A program made the position numbers and the translations under genes. The notes under the pieces are model-generated. The model made no database searches. It was not told the DNA's origin and worked only from the letters and a program-made list of their open reading frames with translations. A stretch of DNA of 64,000 nucleotides from an uncultured bacterium (GTDB taxonomy: Bacteria > Patescibacteriota > Minisyncoccia > Phycocordibacterales > UBA11359). This document shows, one piece after another, positions 8,820 to 64,000 of the stretch; position 1 is the first letter of the stretch; each line of letters starts with the position of its first letter. The stretch covers positions 14,914 to 78,913 of the forward strand of contig CAIKZC010000010.1 in the NCBI GenBank assembly GCA_903831815.1, read 5' to 3'.

Positions 8820-8909
8820 TGGCGGAGAGGGGGAGATTCGAACTCCCGAAGAACTTTCGCCCTTGCTGGTTTTCGAAACCAGTGCTTTCGACCACTCAGC
8901 CACCTCTCC
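8820..8909 (-). tRNA. tRNA-Ser (anticodon CGA), long variable arm, CCA encoded
   Basis: Reverse complement: GGAGAGG acceptor, anticodon stem CTGGT/ACCAG with loop TTCGAAA, extended variable arm, T-loop TTCGAAT, GCCA. Confidence 0.8.
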
Positions 8910-8970
8910 GTGCCTCTAAACCTAACACTTTTTTGCTTTTTTATCAAAAAATGTTATATTCAAGCCTACC

Positions 8971-9045
8971 GGCTCTATCGTCTAACGGTTAGGACACGGC
9001 CTTTTCAAGGCTGGAATCGGGGTTCGATTCCCCGTAGAGTCACCA
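8971..9045 (+). tRNA. tRNA-Glu (anticodon TTC), CCA encoded
   Basis: GGCTCTA acceptor, anticodon stem CGGCC/GGCTG with loop TTTTCAA, T-arm CGGGG-TTCGATT-CCCCG, ACCA. Confidence 0.8.
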
Positions 9046-10673
9046 GTTAACTTTTTACGTCTCAAAAGGGCTTCAAAACCGTCTTTTCCCTTGAAATCTA
9101 CTAGCTTTTTGTTGTTAAAGGTAAGTTCGGTAAACATCATTGCTGCAATATCCCTTTTTTCATTATCAAGAGCGAATTTATAGTACAGGCTCGCACGTTT
9201 GATGAGTTCGGAAAAAGTTGTTACGTATTTGAGCATTTCTTGTGCGGCTTCGCCGTATGCTCCGGCTTTCTGTCTGATCTCATTTAGTTGTCCCATCAGC
9301 CTGTTCTCCTCGGTTTTGGCATCTTCAATGCTCATTGAGTTCGTCCTTAGAAGGGTAATACGATTTTTAGTTAGATAATCCAGATCCGCATAGACTCGCT
9401 TCTCTTGATTGTGAAGATCGTCGAGCTCTTTGTTGCGTTTTATGGTAATCGCATCTATACCTGAGCGTGCTTTGACCTCAAGTTCTCGCAATTCTTCATC
9501 ATCGAAATGCATGCGGTCCATTAGCGACTGTATACTCGCGTGGATATCGCTCTCTTTTAGATTTCTATCTGGGTTATTGCACGTTGCAGCACATCGCAGT
9601 CGATAGTAGCCGATACCCTTTCTTATATAATGACAATATGCACGGCCGCAAGTGCATCGAATCAGTTTTCTGTAAGTTGCGAACTTTTTATTGACGTAAT
9701 ATACCGATACACAACGCGCCTTCAGAACCTCTTGAACCTTATTAAAGAGACTAGTATCTATGAGTGGTTGATGCGCGGTTGAGATTATGAAGCCCTCTTT
9801 TGTTCTGTTCTGGCCTATATAAAATGGGTTAGTTAATATGTGCTCGATCGTTTTGTGTGTCACAGGTCTTGAAATCTTAGGCATCGTTTCGAGTTCTATA
9901 TTGGATAAAATCTGGTCCTCTGTTCTTTTGCCGCGAGAAGGTTTTGTCGTCAGCCCTTGTTCGTTGGCCCATTTACTCAACTCGAGTACACTCCAATCGC
10001 CTGTGGCGTACAATTCAAATATACGCTTTACAATAGGTGCTCGTACTGGGTCTATTGGTTTGTCACCTGATCCATTATCGAGATAGCCGGTAGGAGAGCA
10101 GTTAATGAACTTGCCCTCGGCTCGTAATTTTCTGTTTGTGTTTCTTACTTTTTCACTGATAACTCTAGAGTAGTGGGTAGAGAACATGCCATCGATGTCC
10201 ATGTGTAAGTCACCGGAGCTACTTTTTTCGTAAGTTGTTTCGGAAAATCTAATGTCGCAACCCAGCTTAAGTAACTTTTTGATGATTACGTCATCTTGCC
10301 CGTTGCGACTCGCTCGGTCCCAACATAGGAATATGGCCCCTTTTATTTCTTTATTCTTGAGCATTCCAACAAGTCGCAGAAACTTTGGTCTTTCGATTTT
10401 ATATTGGACAGTGCCGTTCGGCATAATTTCAAAACATTCATCTTCCTTGAAACCGGAATGTCTTTCATTGATAATCCCAGCATTGCAGAAGTTTGGTATT
10501 GTCAGATCGGCTATATTTAATTTTTCTCTTTTTGCGAATCGTAAGTTTGCACCCCTCTGATATTCCAAAGAATTTTTTTGGTTGTCGGCGTCATCTGTAC
10601 TCTTACGGTCGTACACGATGTGCATGTCCCTGAAAGGACTTGATGTTTGTTTTATCTGGTTCTGATTTTTCAT
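8982..10673 (-). CDS. Large serine recombinase/integrase (563 aa); 3' end reads through tRNA-Glu on the opposite strand
   Basis: N-terminal resolvase catalytic domain with YDRKST catalytic-serine context; recombinase domain, Cys-rich zinc-ribbon region (CTCGRAYCH...C) and coiled coil; last ~21 codons are the antisense of the tRNA. Confidence 0.75.
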   Translation of the reverse strand: MKNQNQIKQTSSPFRDMHIVYDRKSTDDADNQKNSLEYQRGANLRFAKREKLNIADLTIPNFCNAGIINERHSGFKEDECFEIMPNGTVQYKIERPKFLRLVGMLKNKEIKGAIFLCWDRASRNGQDDVIIKKLLKLGCDIRFSETTYEKSSSGDLHMDIDGMFSTHYSRVISEKVRNTNRKLRAEGKFINCSPTGYLDNGSGDKPIDPVRAPIVKRIFELYATGDWSVLELSKWANEQGLTTKPSRGKRTEDQILSNIELETMPKISRPVTHKTIEHILTNPFYIGQNRTKEGFIISTAHQPLIDTSLFNKVQEVLKARCVSVYYVNKKFATYRKLIRCTCGRAYCHYIRKGIGYYRLRCAATCNNPDRNLKESDIHASIQSLMDRMHFDDEELRELEVKARSGIDAITIKRNKELDDLHNQEKRVYADLDYLTKNRITLLRTNSMSIEDAKTEENRLMGQLNEIRQKAGAYGEAAQEMLKYVTTFSELIKRASLYYKFALDNEKRDIAAMMFTELTFNNKKLVDFKGKDGFEALLRRKKLTGDSTGNRTPIPALKRPCPNR

Positions 10674-49467: not shown

Positions 49468-50076
49468 CTACTGGTTTCCGACCAGTATCTGCATCGGACG
49501 GTCATCTCCTTCCGGCCGAATCGGTTCCACGTACATAGTCGTGAATGCTTTCGGCTTTATCGGAACCTTTCTGGAGTCGGAGTATTTGATCGGTTCCGGA
49601 TCGACCAAGTGTTCCTTCCCTTGGGGATCGGTGATCATTCGGTAGATGAGAAAATCATCATCTTTCAGTGCCGGTCTTGCACAAAGTCCGGCGTACTTCT
49701 TGATGGTCACTTTAACTCGCTGGTGAGGATAAGCCCAGATCTCATCCATCTGGCCGGCGGGTGCAGGGGATTCCGCTATTGGCGCCGACTTCGCGGCATC
49801 CGTTGCTCGAGGTGTAGACGAGGGGATCCCGCTGTAACTCTCGCAGATTCGTACCGTGACGATGACCACAATCGTCATTGCAACTATGATCGAGGTCGCT
49901 GCGATCTTGTCGATACGACGAGCTCGCCACAGCTTCCACATGAGACCTGTGACAATTGTCACAAACATCAAGATCCAGAAAGAAGTGGGGTGCAGCAAAT
50001 AGTACAAAATATCTAACGCTGCAACGATAGCGGCTATTATTGCCACCCACTTCGTAAATGTCCGTAAACTTGGCAT
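49468..50076 (-). CDS. Hypothetical membrane protein (GC-rich island)
   Basis: Three N-terminal TM helices then a soluble domain; GC clearly above genome average. Confidence 0.4.
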   Translation of the reverse strand: MPSLRTFTKWVAIIAAIVAALDILYYLLHPTSFWILMFVTIVTGLMWKLWRARRIDKIAATSIIVAMTIVVIVTVRICESYSGIPSSTPRATDAAKSAPIAESPAPAGQMDEIWAYPHQRVKVTIKKYAGLCARPALKDDDFLIYRMITDPQGKEHLVDPEPIKYSDSRKVPIKPKAFTTMYVEPIRPEGDDRPMQILVGNQ

Positions 50077-50202
50077 TGCTACCTCTCTTTCTTTTCCGTG
50101 TTTTTTGTTGTCAAAGGTAGCAACGCGCTACCAAACTAGGCACAGAGTATTGTATCATAATACAACGATAAAGTCAAGAATCGTGAAAATATATAAAAAA
50201 AT

Positions 50203-50240
50203 AACCGCGGACACCAGTTTTTAAACTGGCGCCGCGGTTT
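50203..50240 (-). terminator. Intrinsic terminator hairpin (AACCGCGG...CCGCGGTT with inner palindrome CCAGTTTTTAAACTGG)
   Basis: Downstream of the stop of 50273..51085 on the minus strand, followed by a T-run on that strand. Confidence 0.5.
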
Positions 50241-50272
50241 GTTGACCTTCTTCGTCGTAGTGGTCAAGAGTG

Positions 50273-51085
50273 CTACGGTGACATTGGGACTCCGGAAGCG
50301 GAGTTAGCCCCAGCCACAGACCTCGAAGCGGAAATAGATTCGGAAGCAGCAGACTGAGTCTGCTGTTGTCCCTGAACCTGAAATGCGTTACCGCCTCTTC
50401 CACCGGCACCGCCCAAACCGATGCCACCACCACCGCCGGCTCCGCCCGCGCCGCCGTTAGCTTTGACCACAGTGGAACTGCGTGCTGGCCGAATTAATGC
50501 TCCGGCTACAGCAACACCTGTGCCTTGAGCAATACCTTGCCCAAGACCGTCCATTATGCGTGTGTTTTTGCCAGACGCACTTCCGCTGGCGGAATTCACC
50601 AGGTAAGAATTTCCTGGTTGATTTTCAACCGGCGGATTGGGAACAGCAGTCATTTGCTGTGGCTGCGGAGTGCCGTAGTTTGGAACGGCAGTCGGCGTTT
50701 GCATAATCGGCTGCCGAGCATCGTAGGTGACCTGAGCTGCACCGAATGGTTGCTGCGTCGGCGCCCACGGTTTCGGCGATGTAAATCCGGTTGTCGGAAT
50801 GTTGGCCGGCGGCAGCTGCGGCGGTTGCTGCGCACTTATGTCAGTCGTCTGCTGTGGTGGCGCCACGGGCTCGATCTCAGTAGCGTAGGTGTCGACTTTC
50901 GTCACCACTACGCCACTGTCGTCTTTGTAAGAGACGACGCGATCACGAAGCTTCATGTTGCCGTTTTGGTACGGCTCGCCGATCCAGTGAGAGGTCTCGT
51001 ACTTGTTTGCGCAGCCAACGAGGCCACACAAGATTGTCGCCATAATAGCGACGATGAACAGTTTCATTTTCATGGTTTCTCCCAA
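50273..51085 (-). CDS. Pro/Gln-rich lipoprotein with Gly-rich C-terminus (GC-rich island)
   Basis: Signal peptide + lipobox LVGC; long P/Q-rich low-complexity region; GGAGGAGGGGGIGLGGAGGRGG tract. Confidence 0.5.
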   Translation of the reverse strand: MGETMKMKLFIVAIMATILCGLVGCANKYETSHWIGEPYQNGNMKLRDRVVSYKDDSGVVVTKVDTYATEIEPVAPPQQTTDISAQQPPQLPPANIPTTGFTSPKPWAPTQQPFGAAQVTYDARQPIMQTPTAVPNYGTPQPQQMTAVPNPPVENQPGNSYLVNSASGSASGKNTRIMDGLGQGIAQGTGVAVAGALIRPARSSTVVKANGGAGGAGGGGGIGLGGAGGRGGNAFQVQGQQQTQSAASESISASRSVAGANSASGVPMSP

Positions 51086-51130
51086 AAAAGAACGAAAAAC
51101 AAAACGAAGGATCGAACTTCCTTGCTCAGC

Positions 51131-52204
51131 TTATGGCTGAGAGGGCAAGGAGAGTGGAATCGTTAACAACCCCGATCCTGCTGGCGCATACGGAAAGTTT
51201 CCCGGACTCGCCATGTAGCGTGTAAAACCTCCACCTTGGTAAAATCGCGAGGGACTGACGTTTGTCACCGGGGTTACCAGTTTGGCAACTTCAGGTGAGT
51301 AAACGATCTGGCCGGTCGCGTTGTCTACCGTAAAAGGAAGGCTATACATGACAACATACGGCCAATCGTTTGGCACGCCGTTCACCCAAAAGCGGGTGTG
51401 TTTGCTGCCATCGGGTTGGCTAAAGTCGTTCATGTAGACACCGTCAACAGCCTTGACCAAAGCTCCATCATCCAGACACAAAAGGATATTCACCTTCCAT
51501 ATCGGAGGAGCATTGCCAGAAAGTATGGCGCCGCGATCCTTTTGGGGGATTTGCGCCAACACTTTCTGAAAATCTTGACTCAGTCCATCGAGCTTGCTTC
51601 CCAGCTTGTCTCCAAGCTCTTTCATGTCGGCCTTGGTAGCCAATGGACTTGTCGTCGGATCGAAGATCTGGCGACGCTGTTCGTCGAACTGCGCCTGAGT
51701 TTTCTTGACGACACGTTCGGCCACATCGTCGGCATATTTCGTCCAGTTATCGGCGGTGACGAGCTTCTCCTTATCTTTGAGAATCTCGTTCCGCAATTCG
51801 CTGATGATCTTGCCGCTTGAGTCGCTTGCGCCAGACTTCATGCTATCGGACTTCAAGAGCCAGATACCGAATCCGACAACAACGATCAGGGCGATGATAG
51901 CCAGGATAAACCAAGCAATCTCCGACCACTTGGCAATCCTCGACGCGACCTGACTCGGTGCGGGTGCCGGTTGCCCAGGCGGATTGGGATCCGTGTTCCT
52001 GGTTGCGACACCAGGGACCAAACCGAACTGTTCCATGGATATTCTTCTCAGATAACCTGCGCGCTCCATCTCCTCGACTACAGGATCGCGAATTTCTTCG
52101 CGTCCTCGTGCGGGCGCAGGTGCGGGTGCCGGTGGAACTGTACTCGACGCAGGTGCAGGGCCCGGATTAGGGGGACTTGCAGGGTTATTCGGAACTTGTG
52201 ACAT
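51131..52204 (-). CDS. Hypothetical surface protein: Pro-rich N-terminus, one TM, extracellular domain (GC-rich island)
   Basis: PAPAPAPA-type N-terminus, TM WFILAIIALIVVVGFGIWLL, ~230-aa C-terminal domain. Confidence 0.45.
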   Translation of the reverse strand: MSQVPNNPASPPNPGPAPASSTVPPAPAPAPARGREEIRDPVVEEMERAGYLRRISMEQFGLVPGVATRNTDPNPPGQPAPAPSQVASRIAKWSEIAWFILAIIALIVVVGFGIWLLKSDSMKSGASDSSGKIISELRNEILKDKEKLVTADNWTKYADDVAERVVKKTQAQFDEQRRQIFDPTTSPLATKADMKELGDKLGSKLDGLSQDFQKVLAQIPQKDRGAILSGNAPPIWKVNILLCLDDGALVKAVDGVYMNDFSQPDGSKHTRFWVNGVPNDWPYVVMYSLPFTVDNATGQIVYSPEVAKLVTPVTNVSPSRFYQGGGFTRYMASPGNFPYAPAGSGLLTIPLSLPSQP

Positions 52205-53675: not shown

Positions 53676-55253
53676 TTACAAAAGTTTGACGGCTTCGATG
53701 GTGTCGCCGGTGGCCATTTCGATTTTTGATTCGATTTGAGCCCCGAATTCTTTACCTTCGATAACAGTGTCGGTATTGGCTTTCATTTGTTGAAGGTTAC
53801 GAATTTTACCTGTGCCGATTTGAGCGGCGCGGCGACGAATCGTGACGAGCTCGCCGACCTTAATCGCGCCGCTCACCACTTTCCCGCCCACAACTTGTCG
53901 GTCGCGCTGTTTGCCGAAGATTTTTAGAATATTTGCCGTCCCGCGAATCTCTTCCGTCGGTTTCGGAGCGCGCTCATTGGCAAGTCCAGCCAAATATTCA
54001 GATAATTTATAAATCACGGTAAAGTTTTGCACATTAATACCTGATCTTTCCGCGAGGTTGAGTGCGGCGTTGTCGATACGTACATTAAATCCGAGCACCG
54101 CGGCGCCGGCAGCACCAAGCGCCCCCTTAATGTCAATTTCTGAAATCGGCCCGATACCTTTTTGAATAAGACGGACCTCAACTTCTTCGTGATGAAGTTT
54201 TCCGATCTCATGTTCAATACCTTCGAGACTTCCAACCGTGTCGGCTTTCAAAATTACAGGGATCAAAACTTTTTCCACGGTGGCTTTTTCTTCAGGATTA
54301 TCTTTGGAAATTTTGACCGGACCGTTGTTGGCAACTTTAACCACGACATTTTTCACAGCTGCTGCTTTCACAATCGCCGCTTCAGTCGCATATTTTGCCG
54401 CTTCCTCCTCAGCGAGTTTTTTCGAATCAACAGCATAAAATAAACTCCCAACTTCCGGCAATTTACTCCAACCAATAATTTGCACCGGACTGCCAAACAT
54501 CGCGCTCTCGATTGGTTTACCTAAAAAGTTTTCCATAATTCGCACTGGTGTCCAAGCATCGCCGGCCACAATATATGAACCGCGTTTCAAAACTCCGTCT
54601 TTGATCACAAGTACTGCTGAAATACCTTTTTTGGTATCGAGTTTAGTTTCAATGACAATTCCTTCGGCCGCTTTATTCACATCACCGGTAAATCCACCCA
54701 TTTCTGCCACAAGCAAAATCAAATCTAGTAATTCAGGAATACCTTCTCCTGTTTTCGCAGAAATAGCAACCCAAGAAATATCACCACCATATCCTTCCAA
54801 ATAGACATCAGCTTCGGCCAACTTTTGCTTGGTCATTTCAATATTGGCATTTGGCTTATCAATTTTGTTGATGGCTACGACGAAGGGGAGGCCAGCCGTG
54901 CGAATCGCTTTGATGGCTTCGATCGTCTGAGGCTTCACGCCGTCTTCGGCGGAAACAACGAGCACGGCAATGTCAGCCGCAATCGCGCCACGTGATCGCA
55001 TTTTAGAAAAAGCTTCATGACCGGGCGTATCGAGAAAAGTTATTCTTTTATCCGCACCATCTTTTTTGTGAACAACTTCGTACGCGGAAATATGCTGTGT
55101 GATGCCACCCGCTTCTTTATCAACAATATTTGTTTTGCGAATATAATCTAGGAGAGTCGATTTGCCGTGGTCAATGTGACCCATGATAACCACAACGGGC
55201 GTTCGCTCGCTCTGCTCCTTGGCAGTATTATTTTGTGGTTTTTTTGTAGCCAT
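53676..55253 (-). CDS. infB: Translation initiation factor IF-2 (short form lacking N-terminal domains)
   Basis: G-domain motifs GHIDHGKST, DTPGHEAF, NKID; C-terminal beta-barrel domains; 525 aa. Confidence 0.9.
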   Translation of the reverse strand: MATKKPQNNTAKEQSERTPVVVIMGHIDHGKSTLLDYIRKTNIVDKEAGGITQHISAYEVVHKKDGADKRITFLDTPGHEAFSKMRSRGAIAADIAVLVVSAEDGVKPQTIEAIKAIRTAGLPFVVAINKIDKPNANIEMTKQKLAEADVYLEGYGGDISWVAISAKTGEGIPELLDLILLVAEMGGFTGDVNKAAEGIVIETKLDTKKGISAVLVIKDGVLKRGSYIVAGDAWTPVRIMENFLGKPIESAMFGSPVQIIGWSKLPEVGSLFYAVDSKKLAEEEAAKYATEAAIVKAAAVKNVVVKVANNGPVKISKDNPEEKATVEKVLIPVILKADTVGSLEGIEHEIGKLHHEEVEVRLIQKGIGPISEIDIKGALGAAGAAVLGFNVRIDNAALNLAERSGINVQNFTVIYKLSEYLAGLANERAPKPTEEIRGTANILKIFGKQRDRQVVGGKVVSGAIKVGELVTIRRRAAQIGTGKIRNLQQMKANTDTVIEGKEFGAQIESKIEMATGDTIEAVKLL

Positions 55254-61224: not shown

Positions 61225-64000
61225 ATGAAAAATATTTTAAACGAAATCGCAGATGGGTATTTATTCAACAAATATTTTCATATTAAAAAACTGGTCTCAA
61301 TTATTTTGATCATTATTCTCGCGATTCCTTTTGGATTTTGGCCAACAAAACAAGCGGAGGCTGCAGATCAAACTATCACTCTAACTTCCCAAAATGACTT
61401 TAAAGCCGGAACAATCGAAGATGGTTTGGATGCGGATCAGTCAGCCGGAGATTTAAGATTGAAATATAAAACTATTACCTCTACCGATACCACGGACAGT
61501 GATTTTTATTTGGGCAAGACTTTAACTGACGGTTTTTTTATGAGTAACGTTTCATCAGCCGATGGTGGAAAAGTGACAATTAATCAAGGGTATACCTATC
61601 AGAGTAATTCTTCTCCCGCTCTTAGTAATTATCCGTATGCCTCCTTTTTAGACGCCTCCTCCAGTCTTTTGTATGTTAGCACTTGGGGTGGAGGCCTATC
61701 CGTCATTGATACTAAAGGCACAGTCAGTCCGTCTGACGACACTCTGCTGAAATCATATACTACGGCTACCACCCCGGCTATTGCTAATAATAAGGTCATG
61801 TATACTATTTTAGATGCTTCCTCCAGTCTTTTGTATGTTAGCACTAATGGCGGTTTATCTGTCATCGATACTAAAGGCACAAAAGATCCGGCAGACGACA
61901 CTTTGGTCATAACATATACTACAACCTCCACTCCAGCTATTAATGACAACATTGTGAATCATTCCTTTTTGGACGCTTCCTCTAGTCTTTTATACGTTAG
62001 CACCGGTGAAGGTGGAGTATCCGTCATTGATACTAAAGGCACAAAAGATCCGACTGACGACACTTTAGTTAGAACATATACTACAACTAGCACCCCGGCT
62101 ATTGGTAGTGGCAATGTGTATCATTCCTTTTTAGACGCCTCCTCCAGTTATTTGTATATCAGTGTTTATGGTAGCGGTCTATCCGTCATTGATACTAAAG
62201 GCACAAAAGATCCGTTAGACGACACTTTAGTTAAAACATATACTAAAGCTAGCAGCCCGGCTATTGGAAGTAATAATGTCGAGCATTCCTTTTTAGACGC
62301 CTCCTCCAGTCTTTTGTATGTTAGCACTTGGGGTGGCGGTCTATCCGTCATTGATACTAAAGGTACAAAAAGTGCGGCTGACGACACTTTGGTTAGATCG
62401 TATACCACAACTAGTACTCCAGGTATTAGTGACGATAATACTTATTCTACTTATTTGGACGCTACCTCCAGTCTTTTGTATGTTAGCAATTATGGCGGTT
62501 TATCGGTTGTTAGCTTAAATAATCTTTACAACACCCGAGGTGTATATAACAAAACTGTATCAGACGATAAAACTAATTTTTGGCAAACTAAAACCGAAAT
62601 GCCATCAGCAGTACTGGCTGCTGGAAGTGCGGTAATTGGCGACACAATATATGTTATCGGAGGAATGGATAGTGATAGCAGTCCGGTTAATACCGTGTAT
62701 GCTTATGATACTAAAACTAATACTTGGACAACCAAAGCACCACTTCCGGCAGAACGATCCAATGTTTTAGTCGGAGTAATAGGTGGTAAATTGTATGTAG
62801 CTGGTGGAAAGAATTCTGATGGAGATGCCACCAAAACTGTATATGAATATAATCCCACTTCCAATGCGTGGGCGACTAAAACCTCTATGTCACAAGATAG
62901 GATTGGTCCTGTAGGCGGAGTCTATAATGGCAAGCTGTACGTAGGAGGCGGGATGAATAGTTCGTGCGGGGTAAGTGCGTCAAGTATTGAGGAGTATAAT
63001 CCTGATCTAAATACTTGGACTACAAAAACTCCGGCACCGAGCAAAAAACTCGGCAGTGCAACCGCCCAATTTATTAACGGAAAGTTATATGTCGCGGGTG
63101 GGCAGAGTTGTAGTCCATTATCTGACTCATTACTAATATATGATGTGGCGACCGATTCATGGACTACGGGTGCTCCTCTTCCGTTTCATAGAGTTGGGGG
63201 AACATCCGCCGTGCACGATGGCAAGCTATTGTATATTGGTGGATCGGATGGTGTTAATGTTCATTCAGATATGTATATTTATGACCCCGTAACGGATATT
63301 TGGAATTTTTTTAACAATCTTCCGCAAGCTAGGCACAGAGCAATAGCTGAAATTGTTAACGGTGATCTGTATGTGATTGGGGGAGCATTAGATGTTTATG
63401 GCGAAATAACAAATATCACCTACAAACTCCCTTCGACCTATCTCTCCGACACATATCAAAAAAATGCATACAGTCAATTATCTTGGGCGGCCACTACTCC
63501 TTCCGGCACGTCAGTGGAGTTACTCTACTCTTTTGATGACGGAAAAACCTACACCAGTCTTGGCACTACTCCGGGCGACTTCTATCTCCCACCAAACAGA
63601 AGTTACGACTTAACCTACAAAGCTATCCTTTCAACTGACAACACTTCAGTTACTCCAAGTCTGGATAGTGTAACTGTCAAATATGCGCAAGGTGAAAACG
63701 GTCTCTACGCCACATCTTCCGCTGCTTTCACATCCGCTATTGTAGATTTCGGATCGGGACGAGATACTGGAAGATTTATCGCCGACGCCACAACAACAGC
63801 CAGCACTTCCATCGCATATTCCTTCCGTTCCGGATCTACCGCGACACCGGATGGAACATGGACAGGTTGGCAAGTGATCACAGATACATTGCCTGCATAC
63901 TCTCGATACGGTCAGGTCAAAGCTACCCTCAGCACCACCGACCTATCACTCACCCCCACACTTTCCACTCTCACATTTACAACCGACGAGACTGTACCAG
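61225..64000 (+). CDS. Very large secreted/surface protein, 3'-truncated at window end: signal anchor, six tandem ~53-aa repeats, six Kelch-type beta-propeller blades, further S/T-rich domain
   Basis: Hand translation shows an open frame from ATG 61225 to the window end (no stop; absent from the ORF track for that reason); MKNILNEIADGY...IILIIILAIPFGFWPTKQAEA signal; repeats LDASSSLLYVSTWGGGLSVIDTKGTKDP.DDTLV.TYTTTSTPAI; Kelch blades (IYVIGG...W...PLP, KLYVAGG...). Confidence 0.6.
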   Translation, partial: MKNILNEIADGYLFNKYFHIKKLVSIILIIILAIPFGFWPTKQAEAADQTITLTSQNDFKAGTIEDGLDADQSAGDLRLKYKTITSTDTTDSDFYLGKTLTDGFFMSNVSSADGGKVTINQGYTYQSNSSPALSNYPYASFLDASSSLLYVSTWGGGLSVIDTKGTVSPSDDTLLKSYTTATTPAIANNKVMYTILDASSSLLYVSTNGGLSVIDTKGTKDPADDTLVITYTTTSTPAINDNIVNHSFLDASSSLLYVSTGEGGVSVIDTKGTKDPTDDTLVRTYTTTSTPAIGSGNVYHSFLDASSSYLYISVYGSGLSVIDTKGTKDPLDDTLVKTYTKASSPAIGSNNVEHSFLDASSSLLYVSTWGGGLSVIDTKGTKSAADDTLVRSYTTTSTPGISDDNTYSTYLDATSSLLYVSNYGGLSVVSLNNLYNTRGVYNKTVSDDKTNFWQTKTEMPSAVLAAGSAVIGDTIYVIGGMDSDSSPVNTVYAYDTKTNTWTTKAPLPAERSNVLVGVIGGKLYVAGGKNSDGDATKTVYEYNPTSNAWATKTSMSQDRIGPVGGVYNGKLYVGGGMNSSCGVSASSIEEYNPDLNTWTTKTPAPSKKLGSATAQFINGKLYVAGGQSCSPLSDSLLIYDVATDSWTTGAPLPFHRVGGTSAVHDGKLLYIGGSDGVNVHSDMYIYDPVTDIWNFFNNLPQARHRAIAEIVNGDLYVIGGALDVYGEITNITYKLPSTYLSDTYQKNAYSQLSWAATTPSGTSVELLYSFDDGKTYTSLGTTPGDFYLPPNRSYDLTYKAILSTDNTSVTPSLDSVTVKYAQGENGLYATSSAAFTSAIVDFGSGRDTGRFIADATTTASTSIAYSFRSGSTATPDGTWTGWQVITDTLPAYSRYGQVKATLSTTDLSLTPTLSTLTFTTDETVP
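61640..62520 (+). repeat. Six tandem ~159-165-bp coding repeats inside the large surface-protein gene
   Basis: Recurrent ttagacgcctcctccagtcttttgtatgttagcac...gtcattgatactaaaggcacaaaagatcc units; they explain the spurious antisense ORFs 61629..61952 and 62166..62408. Confidence 0.75.

Follow-up and report, generated by a model that had tools for sequence, protein, structure and literature searches.

Does a tandem array of similar coding units in the genome of an uncultured bacterium encode a linear stalk whose length can vary, or are its units the parts of a fixed fold? The question is raised by a gene at the end of a 64,000-nucleotide stretch of DNA, hereafter the window (GenBank assembly GCA_903831815.1, contig CAIKZC010000010.1, positions 14,914 to 78,913), assigned to the Patescibacteriota. 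In this gene an open reading frame (ORF) at 61225-64000 (+) translates into 925 stop-free codons and is still open at the window end. An earlier note, made from the letters of the sequence, had described the product as a giant surface protein with an N-terminal signal, six repeats called near-identical and thought liable to slip or recombine, a Kelch propeller and a Ser/Thr-rich domain. Structure prediction and comparative analysis instead indicate that the "tandem repeats" are structural blades of a toroid that is predicted to be closed, rather than a linear, length-variable stalk. Multi-propeller proteins of the bacterial surface, one propeller of which has been recently amplified, are a known kind, and the protein is one of them; our confidence is high as regards its domain architecture and the reading of the repeats as propeller blades.

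The Repeat Array and Its Copy Number

Tandem Repeats Finder (TRF) returned a single array at 61642-62488 with a period of 162 nt, 5.2 copies, and 75% matches. Dissection of the units resolved five full units of 53-54 aa (residues 142-195, 196-248, 249-302, 303-356, and 357-410), encoded on the plus strand at 61648-61809, 61810-61968, 61969-62130, 62131-62292, and 62293-62454. They are followed by a half unit, the first ~20 residues of a sixth (residues 411-430; 62455-62514, +), while directly upstream of unit 1 stands the orphan tail of a further unit, GYTYQSNSSPALSNYPYASF (residues ~120-141). Pairwise identity between full units is 59-83% in amino acids and 72-81% in DNA, and the longest exact word they have in common is 44 nt. 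The array reported in the earlier note therefore exists, with the period of about 160 bp given there; its units number five full and one split rather than six, and they are not near-identical.

The same array was seen in at least five other assemblies, which represent several samples of one project and a MEGAHIT re-assembly, all from short reads. In two of these loci (L031 and L032) the array does not differ from that of the window, and in another (L030) it is identical as far as the contig reaches. The contig of L001 has 0 mismatches over 61225-63960 and ends in a ~30-nt non-matching tail; two single-nucleotide polymorphisms elsewhere mark it as a separate assembly. Three contigs other than that of the window end in or just after the gene, at residues 331, 423, and ~915, the breaks corresponding to window positions 62218 (L030), ~62493 (a contig of ERZ1426681), and 63970 (L001). 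These breaks suggest that the array is awkward for short-read assemblers, yet all spanning contigs agree. The copy number, whose reality the earlier note had left in question, is thus not an assembly artefact. Nor does the array resemble a contingency or slippage-prone locus, given the 72-81% DNA identity of its units, their 44-nt longest common word, and the equal copy number among assemblies.

Predicted Fold of the Repeat Region

To characterize the fold of the repeat region, residues 48-470 were modeled with AlphaFold2 from an alignment of 30 family members. The predicted local distance difference test score (pLDDT) exceeds 90 over residues ~137-427, where the model contains 24 regularly spaced strands, four per 54-residue unit, making six blades. 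Secondary structure assignment with DSSP gives the last unit three strands and places an extra strand, GYTY, at residues 122-125 (residues 75-78 of the construct; pLDDT 74-81). Because this split-unit anatomy fits a closed ring with a 3+1 blade, we infer a velcro closure in which the orphan GYTY strand would complete the last blade.

Searches of the Protein Data Bank (PDB) agree with the model. All 50 Foldseek hits among the matches listed are propellers or propeller-containing chains (E-values 1e-10 to 1e-7), led by 3v9f, 4a2l, 3ott, 3bws, and 3vgz, and a phmmer search with the region matched 4a2l_A at E=8e-7 (8.5e-8 with the family profile). TRF, profile-based unit calls, AlphaFold2, Foldseek, and phmmer thus delimit a six-bladed propeller 1 at residues 120-430 (61582-62514, +), and the predicted structure shows the four-stranded blades of the β-propeller fold, in an arrangement that would form a closed toroid.

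Curated domain models capture the repeat less well. The Pfam LVIVD model (PF08309) scores below its gathering threshold for the window protein (15.3 vs 20.2 bits, E=0.012), and Reg_prop (PF07494) gives zero match in it even at E<=10. Among 30 relatives, LVIVD is reached by 5, Reg_prop by 3, and the PorZ propeller model by 4. An LVIVD relationship, a reasonable lead offered in the earlier note, holds for those relatives that pass the PF08309 threshold and falls short of it for the window protein itself. The repeat is therefore a member of the propeller superfamily that lies near Reg_prop and LVIVD, without being captured by any curated model.

Evolution of the Blades

The blades of propeller 1 resemble one another (mean identity 70%) more than they resemble the blades of Kelch-bearing orthologues (54-65%), and the nearest neighbor of each blade lies in the same protein for 5/5 blades. 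Blades also carry lineage-specific signatures, such as LDASSS...DTKGTKDP. Between blades, synonymous divergence (dS) is 0.34-0.82 and the ratio of nonsynonymous to synonymous divergence (dN/dS) is 0.2-0.8, indicating that the blades have diverged under purifying selection and are not fresh duplicates.

Median blade identity is 71% for the five full blades of propeller 1, compared with 33% for the Kelch blades described below. Pereira and Lupas (2022; PMC9218822) defined "highly symmetric," recently amplified propellers by a median blade identity above 60%, and found such propellers in all major propeller lineages; at 71%, propeller 1 falls within their definition. Judged from the sequences, the likeness of the blades is a signature of lineage-specific amplification or homogenization.

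When mapped onto the DSSP register, most of the positions that vary between blades (13-14, 29, and 46-52 of the unit) are found in the B-C and D-A loops, which in propellers at large make up the "top" face that binds ligands. By analogy, the variable positions of the window protein would lie on a ligand-binding top face.

The Complete Protein and Its Other Domains

The complete protein (P0125; 1141 aa) was recovered from the 90% identity cluster of an identical fragment (P0001), and adds 216 further residues of the same ORF beyond the window. The exact 1141-aa protein is encoded on 4 contigs, one of them 228 kb, and two of the 4, L031 and L032, show 0 mismatches to the window across 2843 nt before reading on to the stop codon. 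Orthologues at full length span 1066-1231 aa.

The N-terminus (residues 1-46; 61225-61362, +) has the composition of a Sec-type signal peptide by sequence and hydropathy: an n-region that ends in K21 K22, an h-region from L23 to W39, the site A44-E45-A46↓A47, and no Cys. The orthologues P0002 and P0003 keep such a site, as AEA↓A or AKA↓D, and together these features suggest a type I Sec signal peptide. A segment conserved in the family consensus, with two DFxxG motifs, follows at residues 47-119 (61363-61581, +); one or other of the jelly-roll modules described below might be its partner. Between propeller 1 and the next domain lies a linker (residues 431-443; 62515-62553, +) with a pLDDT of 30-47.

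Propeller 2 (residues ~444-738; 62554-63438, +) is, by Pfam, motif map, PDB search, and blade identities, a canonical six-bladed Kelch propeller. Kelch_1 (PF01344, clan CL0186) matches at E=1e-53 with 178.6 bits against a 20.1-bit cut-off, and other Kelch models match too. Six W motifs (residues 453, 501, 549, 598, 646, and 693) alternate with six GG motifs (~479, 527, 574, 625, 672, and 719). In a phmmer search of the PDB, Kelch matches ranged from 5e-72, for the designed six-bladed SAKe, to 1e-37, with KEAP1 at ~1e-44. Assignment to the NanM/YjhT family was considered and rejected, because the protein scores far below the equivalog cut-offs (61 vs 416 bits for NF010730, 51 vs 256 for TIGR03547, and 74 vs 243 for TIGR03548).

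Residues 746-922 are modeled by AlphaFold2 as two folded β-sandwiches. Module A (residues ~746-822; 63460-63690, +), with pLDDT mostly >90, was found by phmmer coverage among homologues only in Kelch-bearing orthologues, and has zero sequence match in Pfam or the PDB. Module B (residues ~828-922; 63706-64000, +) is predicted to adopt a jelly-roll, galactose-binding-domain-like fold and is kept family-wide. Relatives of module B (query residues ~790-920, 29-41% identity) also occur in distant phyla, at four loci (L020-L023) in metagenome-assembled genomes of Acidobacteriota, Gammaproteobacteria, Saccharibacteria, and Chromatiaceae, indicating that this unannotated jelly-roll module is far more widely spread than the propeller head.

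The remainder of the protein lies outside the window and comprises a ~90-residue stretch (~935-1016) that is possibly immunoglobulin-like, a linker, and a tail (~1060-1141) resembling PG_binding_1 (PF01471). The C-terminal ~80 residues match PG_binding_1 with 18.1 bits (E=0.0032) over profile positions 18-56 of 57, and are 40% identical (E=1e-12) to residues 706-774 of P0036, a relative of 782 aa. A peptidoglycan-binding function is therefore probable for the tail on sequence grounds.

Seen at full length, several elements of the earlier description stand: the frame opens at 61225 and runs past the window end with no stop ahead of the repeats, a hydrophobic core (residues 23-39) precedes an AEA↓A site, six Kelch blades are present, and the product has the makeup of a secreted surface-type multidomain protein. 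The downstream sequence that the note had called for now completes the gene to its stop codon through P0125, L031, and L032. Other elements had to be replaced. At 1141 aa the protein is not "giant," and the supposed Ser/Thr-rich domain is not a distinct low-complexity region, as Ser plus Thr make up 20-32% throughout and residues 746-922 fold in the model as two jelly-roll sandwiches.

Family, Distribution, and C-Terminal Anchors

When 1.84 billion representatives were searched exhaustively with HMMER, only 98 clusters were found at E<=1e-30, rising to 157 at E<=1e-10 and to 699 at E<=1e-3. The family is accordingly small, about 100-160 clusters when counted at 50% identity. Its members have in common a signal peptide, the conserved N-terminal segment of ~70 residues, and the propeller. 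Most often a homologue has six full units and a split one, the window protein and a few others have five and a split one, and distant homologues range from 2 to 13 full units. Three members (P0006, P0014, and P0005) have only 2-3 full blades, which are 92-96% identical in P0005 and P0006. As so few blades cannot form a single-chain ring, these may be collapsed short-read assemblies, or their rings may close by oligomerization, as described for other propellers (Afanasieva et al., 2019; PMC6805158).

Kelch repeats are restricted to P0001-P0006; most other members carry a different large module in their place, suggesting that the Kelch propeller is an exchangeable accessory. The C-termini are equally varied and include PG_binding_1 domains, transmembrane (TM) helices that stand by themselves, TM helices set between an LAETG or LSDTG motif and a basic tail, and others. 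This variety of anchors suggests that the C-terminus is proximal to the cell and that the propeller head is distal.

Several of these C-termini deserve description in their own right. P0055, P0060, and P0035 carry sortase-type signals (LAETG or LSDTG, a hydrophobic helix, and a basic tail) behind the same propeller head. P0004, P0006, P0030, and P0046 end in W-rich sequences (FVLWNPWTW, FIWWNPWTW, FIWWNPATWF, and SWWNPFSWF), and these WWNPWTW-type ends sit after a low-complexity Q/E/T/P linker without a TM helix; they may represent an unrecognized sorting or wall-binding signal. In ~25 members (for example P0027, P0034, P0039, P0043, P0048, and P0051), the last ~45 residues consist of KYP(H/E)(L/Y)F and then an amphipathic helix in which L, I, E, and R abound, in proteins that have no listed Pfam match. 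From its sequence this KYPxxF module may be an anchoring or oligomerization device.

The few matches named to organism belong to Moranbacteria/Moraniibacteriota, Dojkabacteria, and Parcubacteria, and the family, as judged from these sequence matches, is seen mostly in the Candidate Phyla Radiation (CPR). The family is unannotated. Zero homologues of the window protein were found between 50% and 100% identity, and a scan of GTDB representatives with the protein returned only distant Kelch or jelly-roll matches. GyrA from the same window behaves differently, with relatives at 90-95% identity; its nearest named match is Ca. Taylorbacteria (92%), and its other named matches are Patescibacteria, Parcubacteria, and Paceibacterota. 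In the literature searched for surface proteins with LVIVD repeats or propellers of CPR bacteria, nothing dealt with this family specifically.

Comparison With Known Propellers

The best PDB match to propeller 1, by sequence (E=8e-7) as well as by fold, is to the periplasmic Reg_prop propellers found in hybrid two-component systems (HTCS) of Bacteroides thetaiotaomicron, namely BT4663 (4A2L/4A2M), BT3049 (3V9F), and BT4673 (3OTT/3VA6), which are extracytoplasmic, as is predicted for the window protein. HTCS and window blades have a common motif, h-h-Y/W-h-x-T-x-G-G-L-x-h-h, at an overall identity of 15-18%. HTCS sensors, however, combine two seven-bladed propellers with a Y_Y_Y domain and are joined to a membrane kinase and regulator, whereas the window protein contains one six-bladed propeller of this kind and no signaling domains. 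LVIVD proteins (PF08309), which are archaeal and bacterial surface proteins with predicted propeller repeats, have in common with the window blades the core LYVA/S-x-GGL-x-V/I-h-D, but the LVIVD model spans 42 positions compared with 53-54 aa for the window unit.

The secreted or periplasmic propellers of Leptospira Lp49 and Escherichia coli YncE are among the top fold matches, yet they occur in another domain context, and the searches made detected no sequence similarity to them. The Lp49 and YncE propellers are seven-bladed. Compared with the Kelch domains of KEAP1/KLHL proteins, SAKe, and NanM, the Kelch propeller of the window protein is bacterial and predicted to be extracellular, is fused behind another propeller, and is not a NanM equivalog.

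As in the amplified propellers described previously (PMC9218822; PMC6805158), the blades of propeller 1 cluster by protein and not by position. Unlike those of a nascent amplification, they are already moderately diverged, with dS of 0.34-0.82. A term search of PMC9218822 found the words LVIVD, Reg_prop, Patescibacteria, and Candidatus absent from that paper.

Proposed Function and Alternatives

We propose, with moderate confidence, that the protein is a wall-tethered surface binding protein, whose most likely task would be to bind an extracellular ligand non-enzymatically. Judging by its sequence, the protein would leave the cell through the Sec pathway, with cleavage of its signal peptide. 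By homology, the PG_binding_1-like C-terminal domain would then hold the protein on the cell wall, and the binding modules (the repeat propeller, the Kelch propeller, the two jelly-rolls, and the ~90-residue stretch) would project outward, in the role of a wall-tethered adhesin or lectin-like binding protein. The adhesin or host-interaction role put forward in the earlier note is plausible, and it gains from the probable peptidoglycan-binding tail and from the anchors of relatives. Of the parts of this proposal, display on the surface through a wall tether is likely. The nature of the ligand is more tentative; a glycan, or a polymer on the surface of a host or partner cell, is suggested by the fold relatives of the protein, which include glycan-sensing HTCS propellers and jelly rolls like those of carbohydrate-binding modules.

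Several observations are at odds with this proposal or leave parts of it loosely fixed. First, ring closure and the velcro strand were read from the DSSP string and pLDDT rather than from coordinates, and the signal peptide cleavage site was predicted by eye. Second, the PG_binding_1 score of the tail (18.1 bits) is under the Pfam gathering threshold of 23 bits, and the assignment leans on a pairwise match to the C-terminus of P0036, which carries a precomputed PF01471 match somewhere in its 782 aa. Third, residues 47-119 are common to the whole family, but their AlphaFold2 pLDDT is only 43-66 and the segment is unexplained. Fourth, both propeller classes occur also in enzymes and sensors, and a role in binding alone is deduced from the absence of a catalytic or signaling domain. 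Finally, gene context gives no functional hint: the gene upstream encodes ClpB, neighboring genes differ in every orthologue, and a family member is found in 0/80 ClpB neighborhoods of related CPR genomes, indicating that the gene is sporadic and stands alone.

An alternative that we consider improbable, yet worth weighing, is a released bridging or attack factor, whose tail would bind the peptidoglycan of a host or partner while its propellers bind the producer or recruit other factors. The PG_binding_1-like tail would suit such a role, as would the absence of a covalent anchor or TM helix from the full-length protein, and CPR bacteria are known episymbionts (for example, PMC12206443). Relatives with the same head, however, bear sortase-type or TM anchors that would place the C-terminus at the producer and the head outward, and no lytic domain is present.

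An extracellular enzyme is less probable still. Here the Kelch propeller would act as a NanM-like mutarotase or a catalyst resembling galactose or glyoxal oxidase, and the remaining domains would bring it to its substrate. Pfam NANM (PF24996) does score 59.4 bits against a 45-bit cut-off, several relatives are named "N-acetylneuraminic acid mutarotase" by the Joint Genome Institute (JGI), and one family member weakly matches Glyoxal_oxid_N. The NCBIfam NanM/YjhT models, however, score far below their cut-offs, and the NANM pass is attributed to generic Kelch similarity. The Kelch propeller is nearest to consensus-designed and protein-binding domains (SAKe and KEAP1), and most family members have an unrelated module in its place, which marks it as an exchangeable accessory. 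The blade number also differs, since the galactose oxidase propeller is seven-bladed and the Kelch propeller described here has six blades.

The reading with which we began, that of a length-variable repeat adhesin whose linear stalk gains and loses units by slippage or recombination and so undergoes phase or antigenic variation, now appears very improbable. It draws on the head-to-tail 162-nt array, on the three short-read contigs that break within or at the end of the gene, and on the spread of 2 to 13 full units among distant homologues. The units, however, have diverged too far for the proneness to slippage or recombination claimed in the earlier note, with DNA identities of 72-81%, a longest exact word of 44 nt, and dS of 0.34-0.82. 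The array is also base-for-base identical in every assembly that spans it and as far as L030 reaches (L001, L030, L031, and L032), and the modeled six-bladed propeller, with its split terminal blade, would constrain the number of blades. Least credible of all is an extracytoplasmic sensor akin to the Reg_prop propellers of Bacteroides HTCS, for although HTCS sensor domains are the closest solved relatives by sequence and fold, the 1141-aa protein lacks kinase, receiver, and DNA-binding domains as well as any TM segment past the signal peptide, and no regulator gene was found adjoining it.

Other Features of the Window

A mechanical ORF list places two antisense ORFs within the repeat array, one of 107 aa at 61629-61952 (-) and one of 80 aa at 62166-62408 (-). 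Both lie wholly within a coding region backed by homology and structure, and are therefore by-products of the repeat and not genes, as the earlier note had also judged. A promoter and terminator scan upstream of the propeller gene found nothing above shuffled sequences.

Elsewhere in the window, an ORF at 8820-10673 (-) encodes a 563-aa large serine recombinase with Resolvase and Recombinase domains. It adjoins a tRNA-Ser gene (8820-8909), and its 3' end overlaps a tRNA-Glu gene (8971-9045); a recombinase at a tRNA cluster may mark an integrated element. The stretch at 50001-52204 has a GC content of 52.6%, compared with mostly 35-47% elsewhere in the window, and may be foreign DNA. It holds ORFs at 50273-51085 (-) and 51131-52204 (-), the latter without a Pfam match. 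Ribosomal RNA was considered for the GC-rich 50-52 kb stretch and rejected, as neither rRNA nor any other Rfam family is present there. At 53676-55253 (-), a 525-aa homologue of initiation factor IF-2 comprises the GTPase domain, domain II, and the IF-2 domain, with no long N-terminal extension.

Significance

The locus provides a complete, reproducibly assembled example of a small unannotated family whose repeat falls between Pfam models, and a natural example of a propeller with blades kept alike within a lineage. It does not overturn current understanding; rather, what the "tandem repeat" flag picks out here is a propeller of structural blades, as opposed to a hypervariable locus.

Host recognition and attachment by the ultrasmall CPR bacteria, or Patescibacteria, are poorly understood, and ligand-binding surface proteins are obvious candidates for both. 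We therefore offer, as a speculation that we regard as doubtful, the hypothesis that the N-terminal head defines a CPR-centered family in which homogenized blades present a multivalent host-recognition face, and accessory modules (Kelch, jelly-rolls) and anchors (PG-binding, sortase signal, TM helix, WWNPWTW) are freely swapped. If this is true, the family would be a candidate determinant of host attachment and host range in episymbiotic Patescibacteria, and its sporadic distribution would reflect rapid turnover under host-driven selection.

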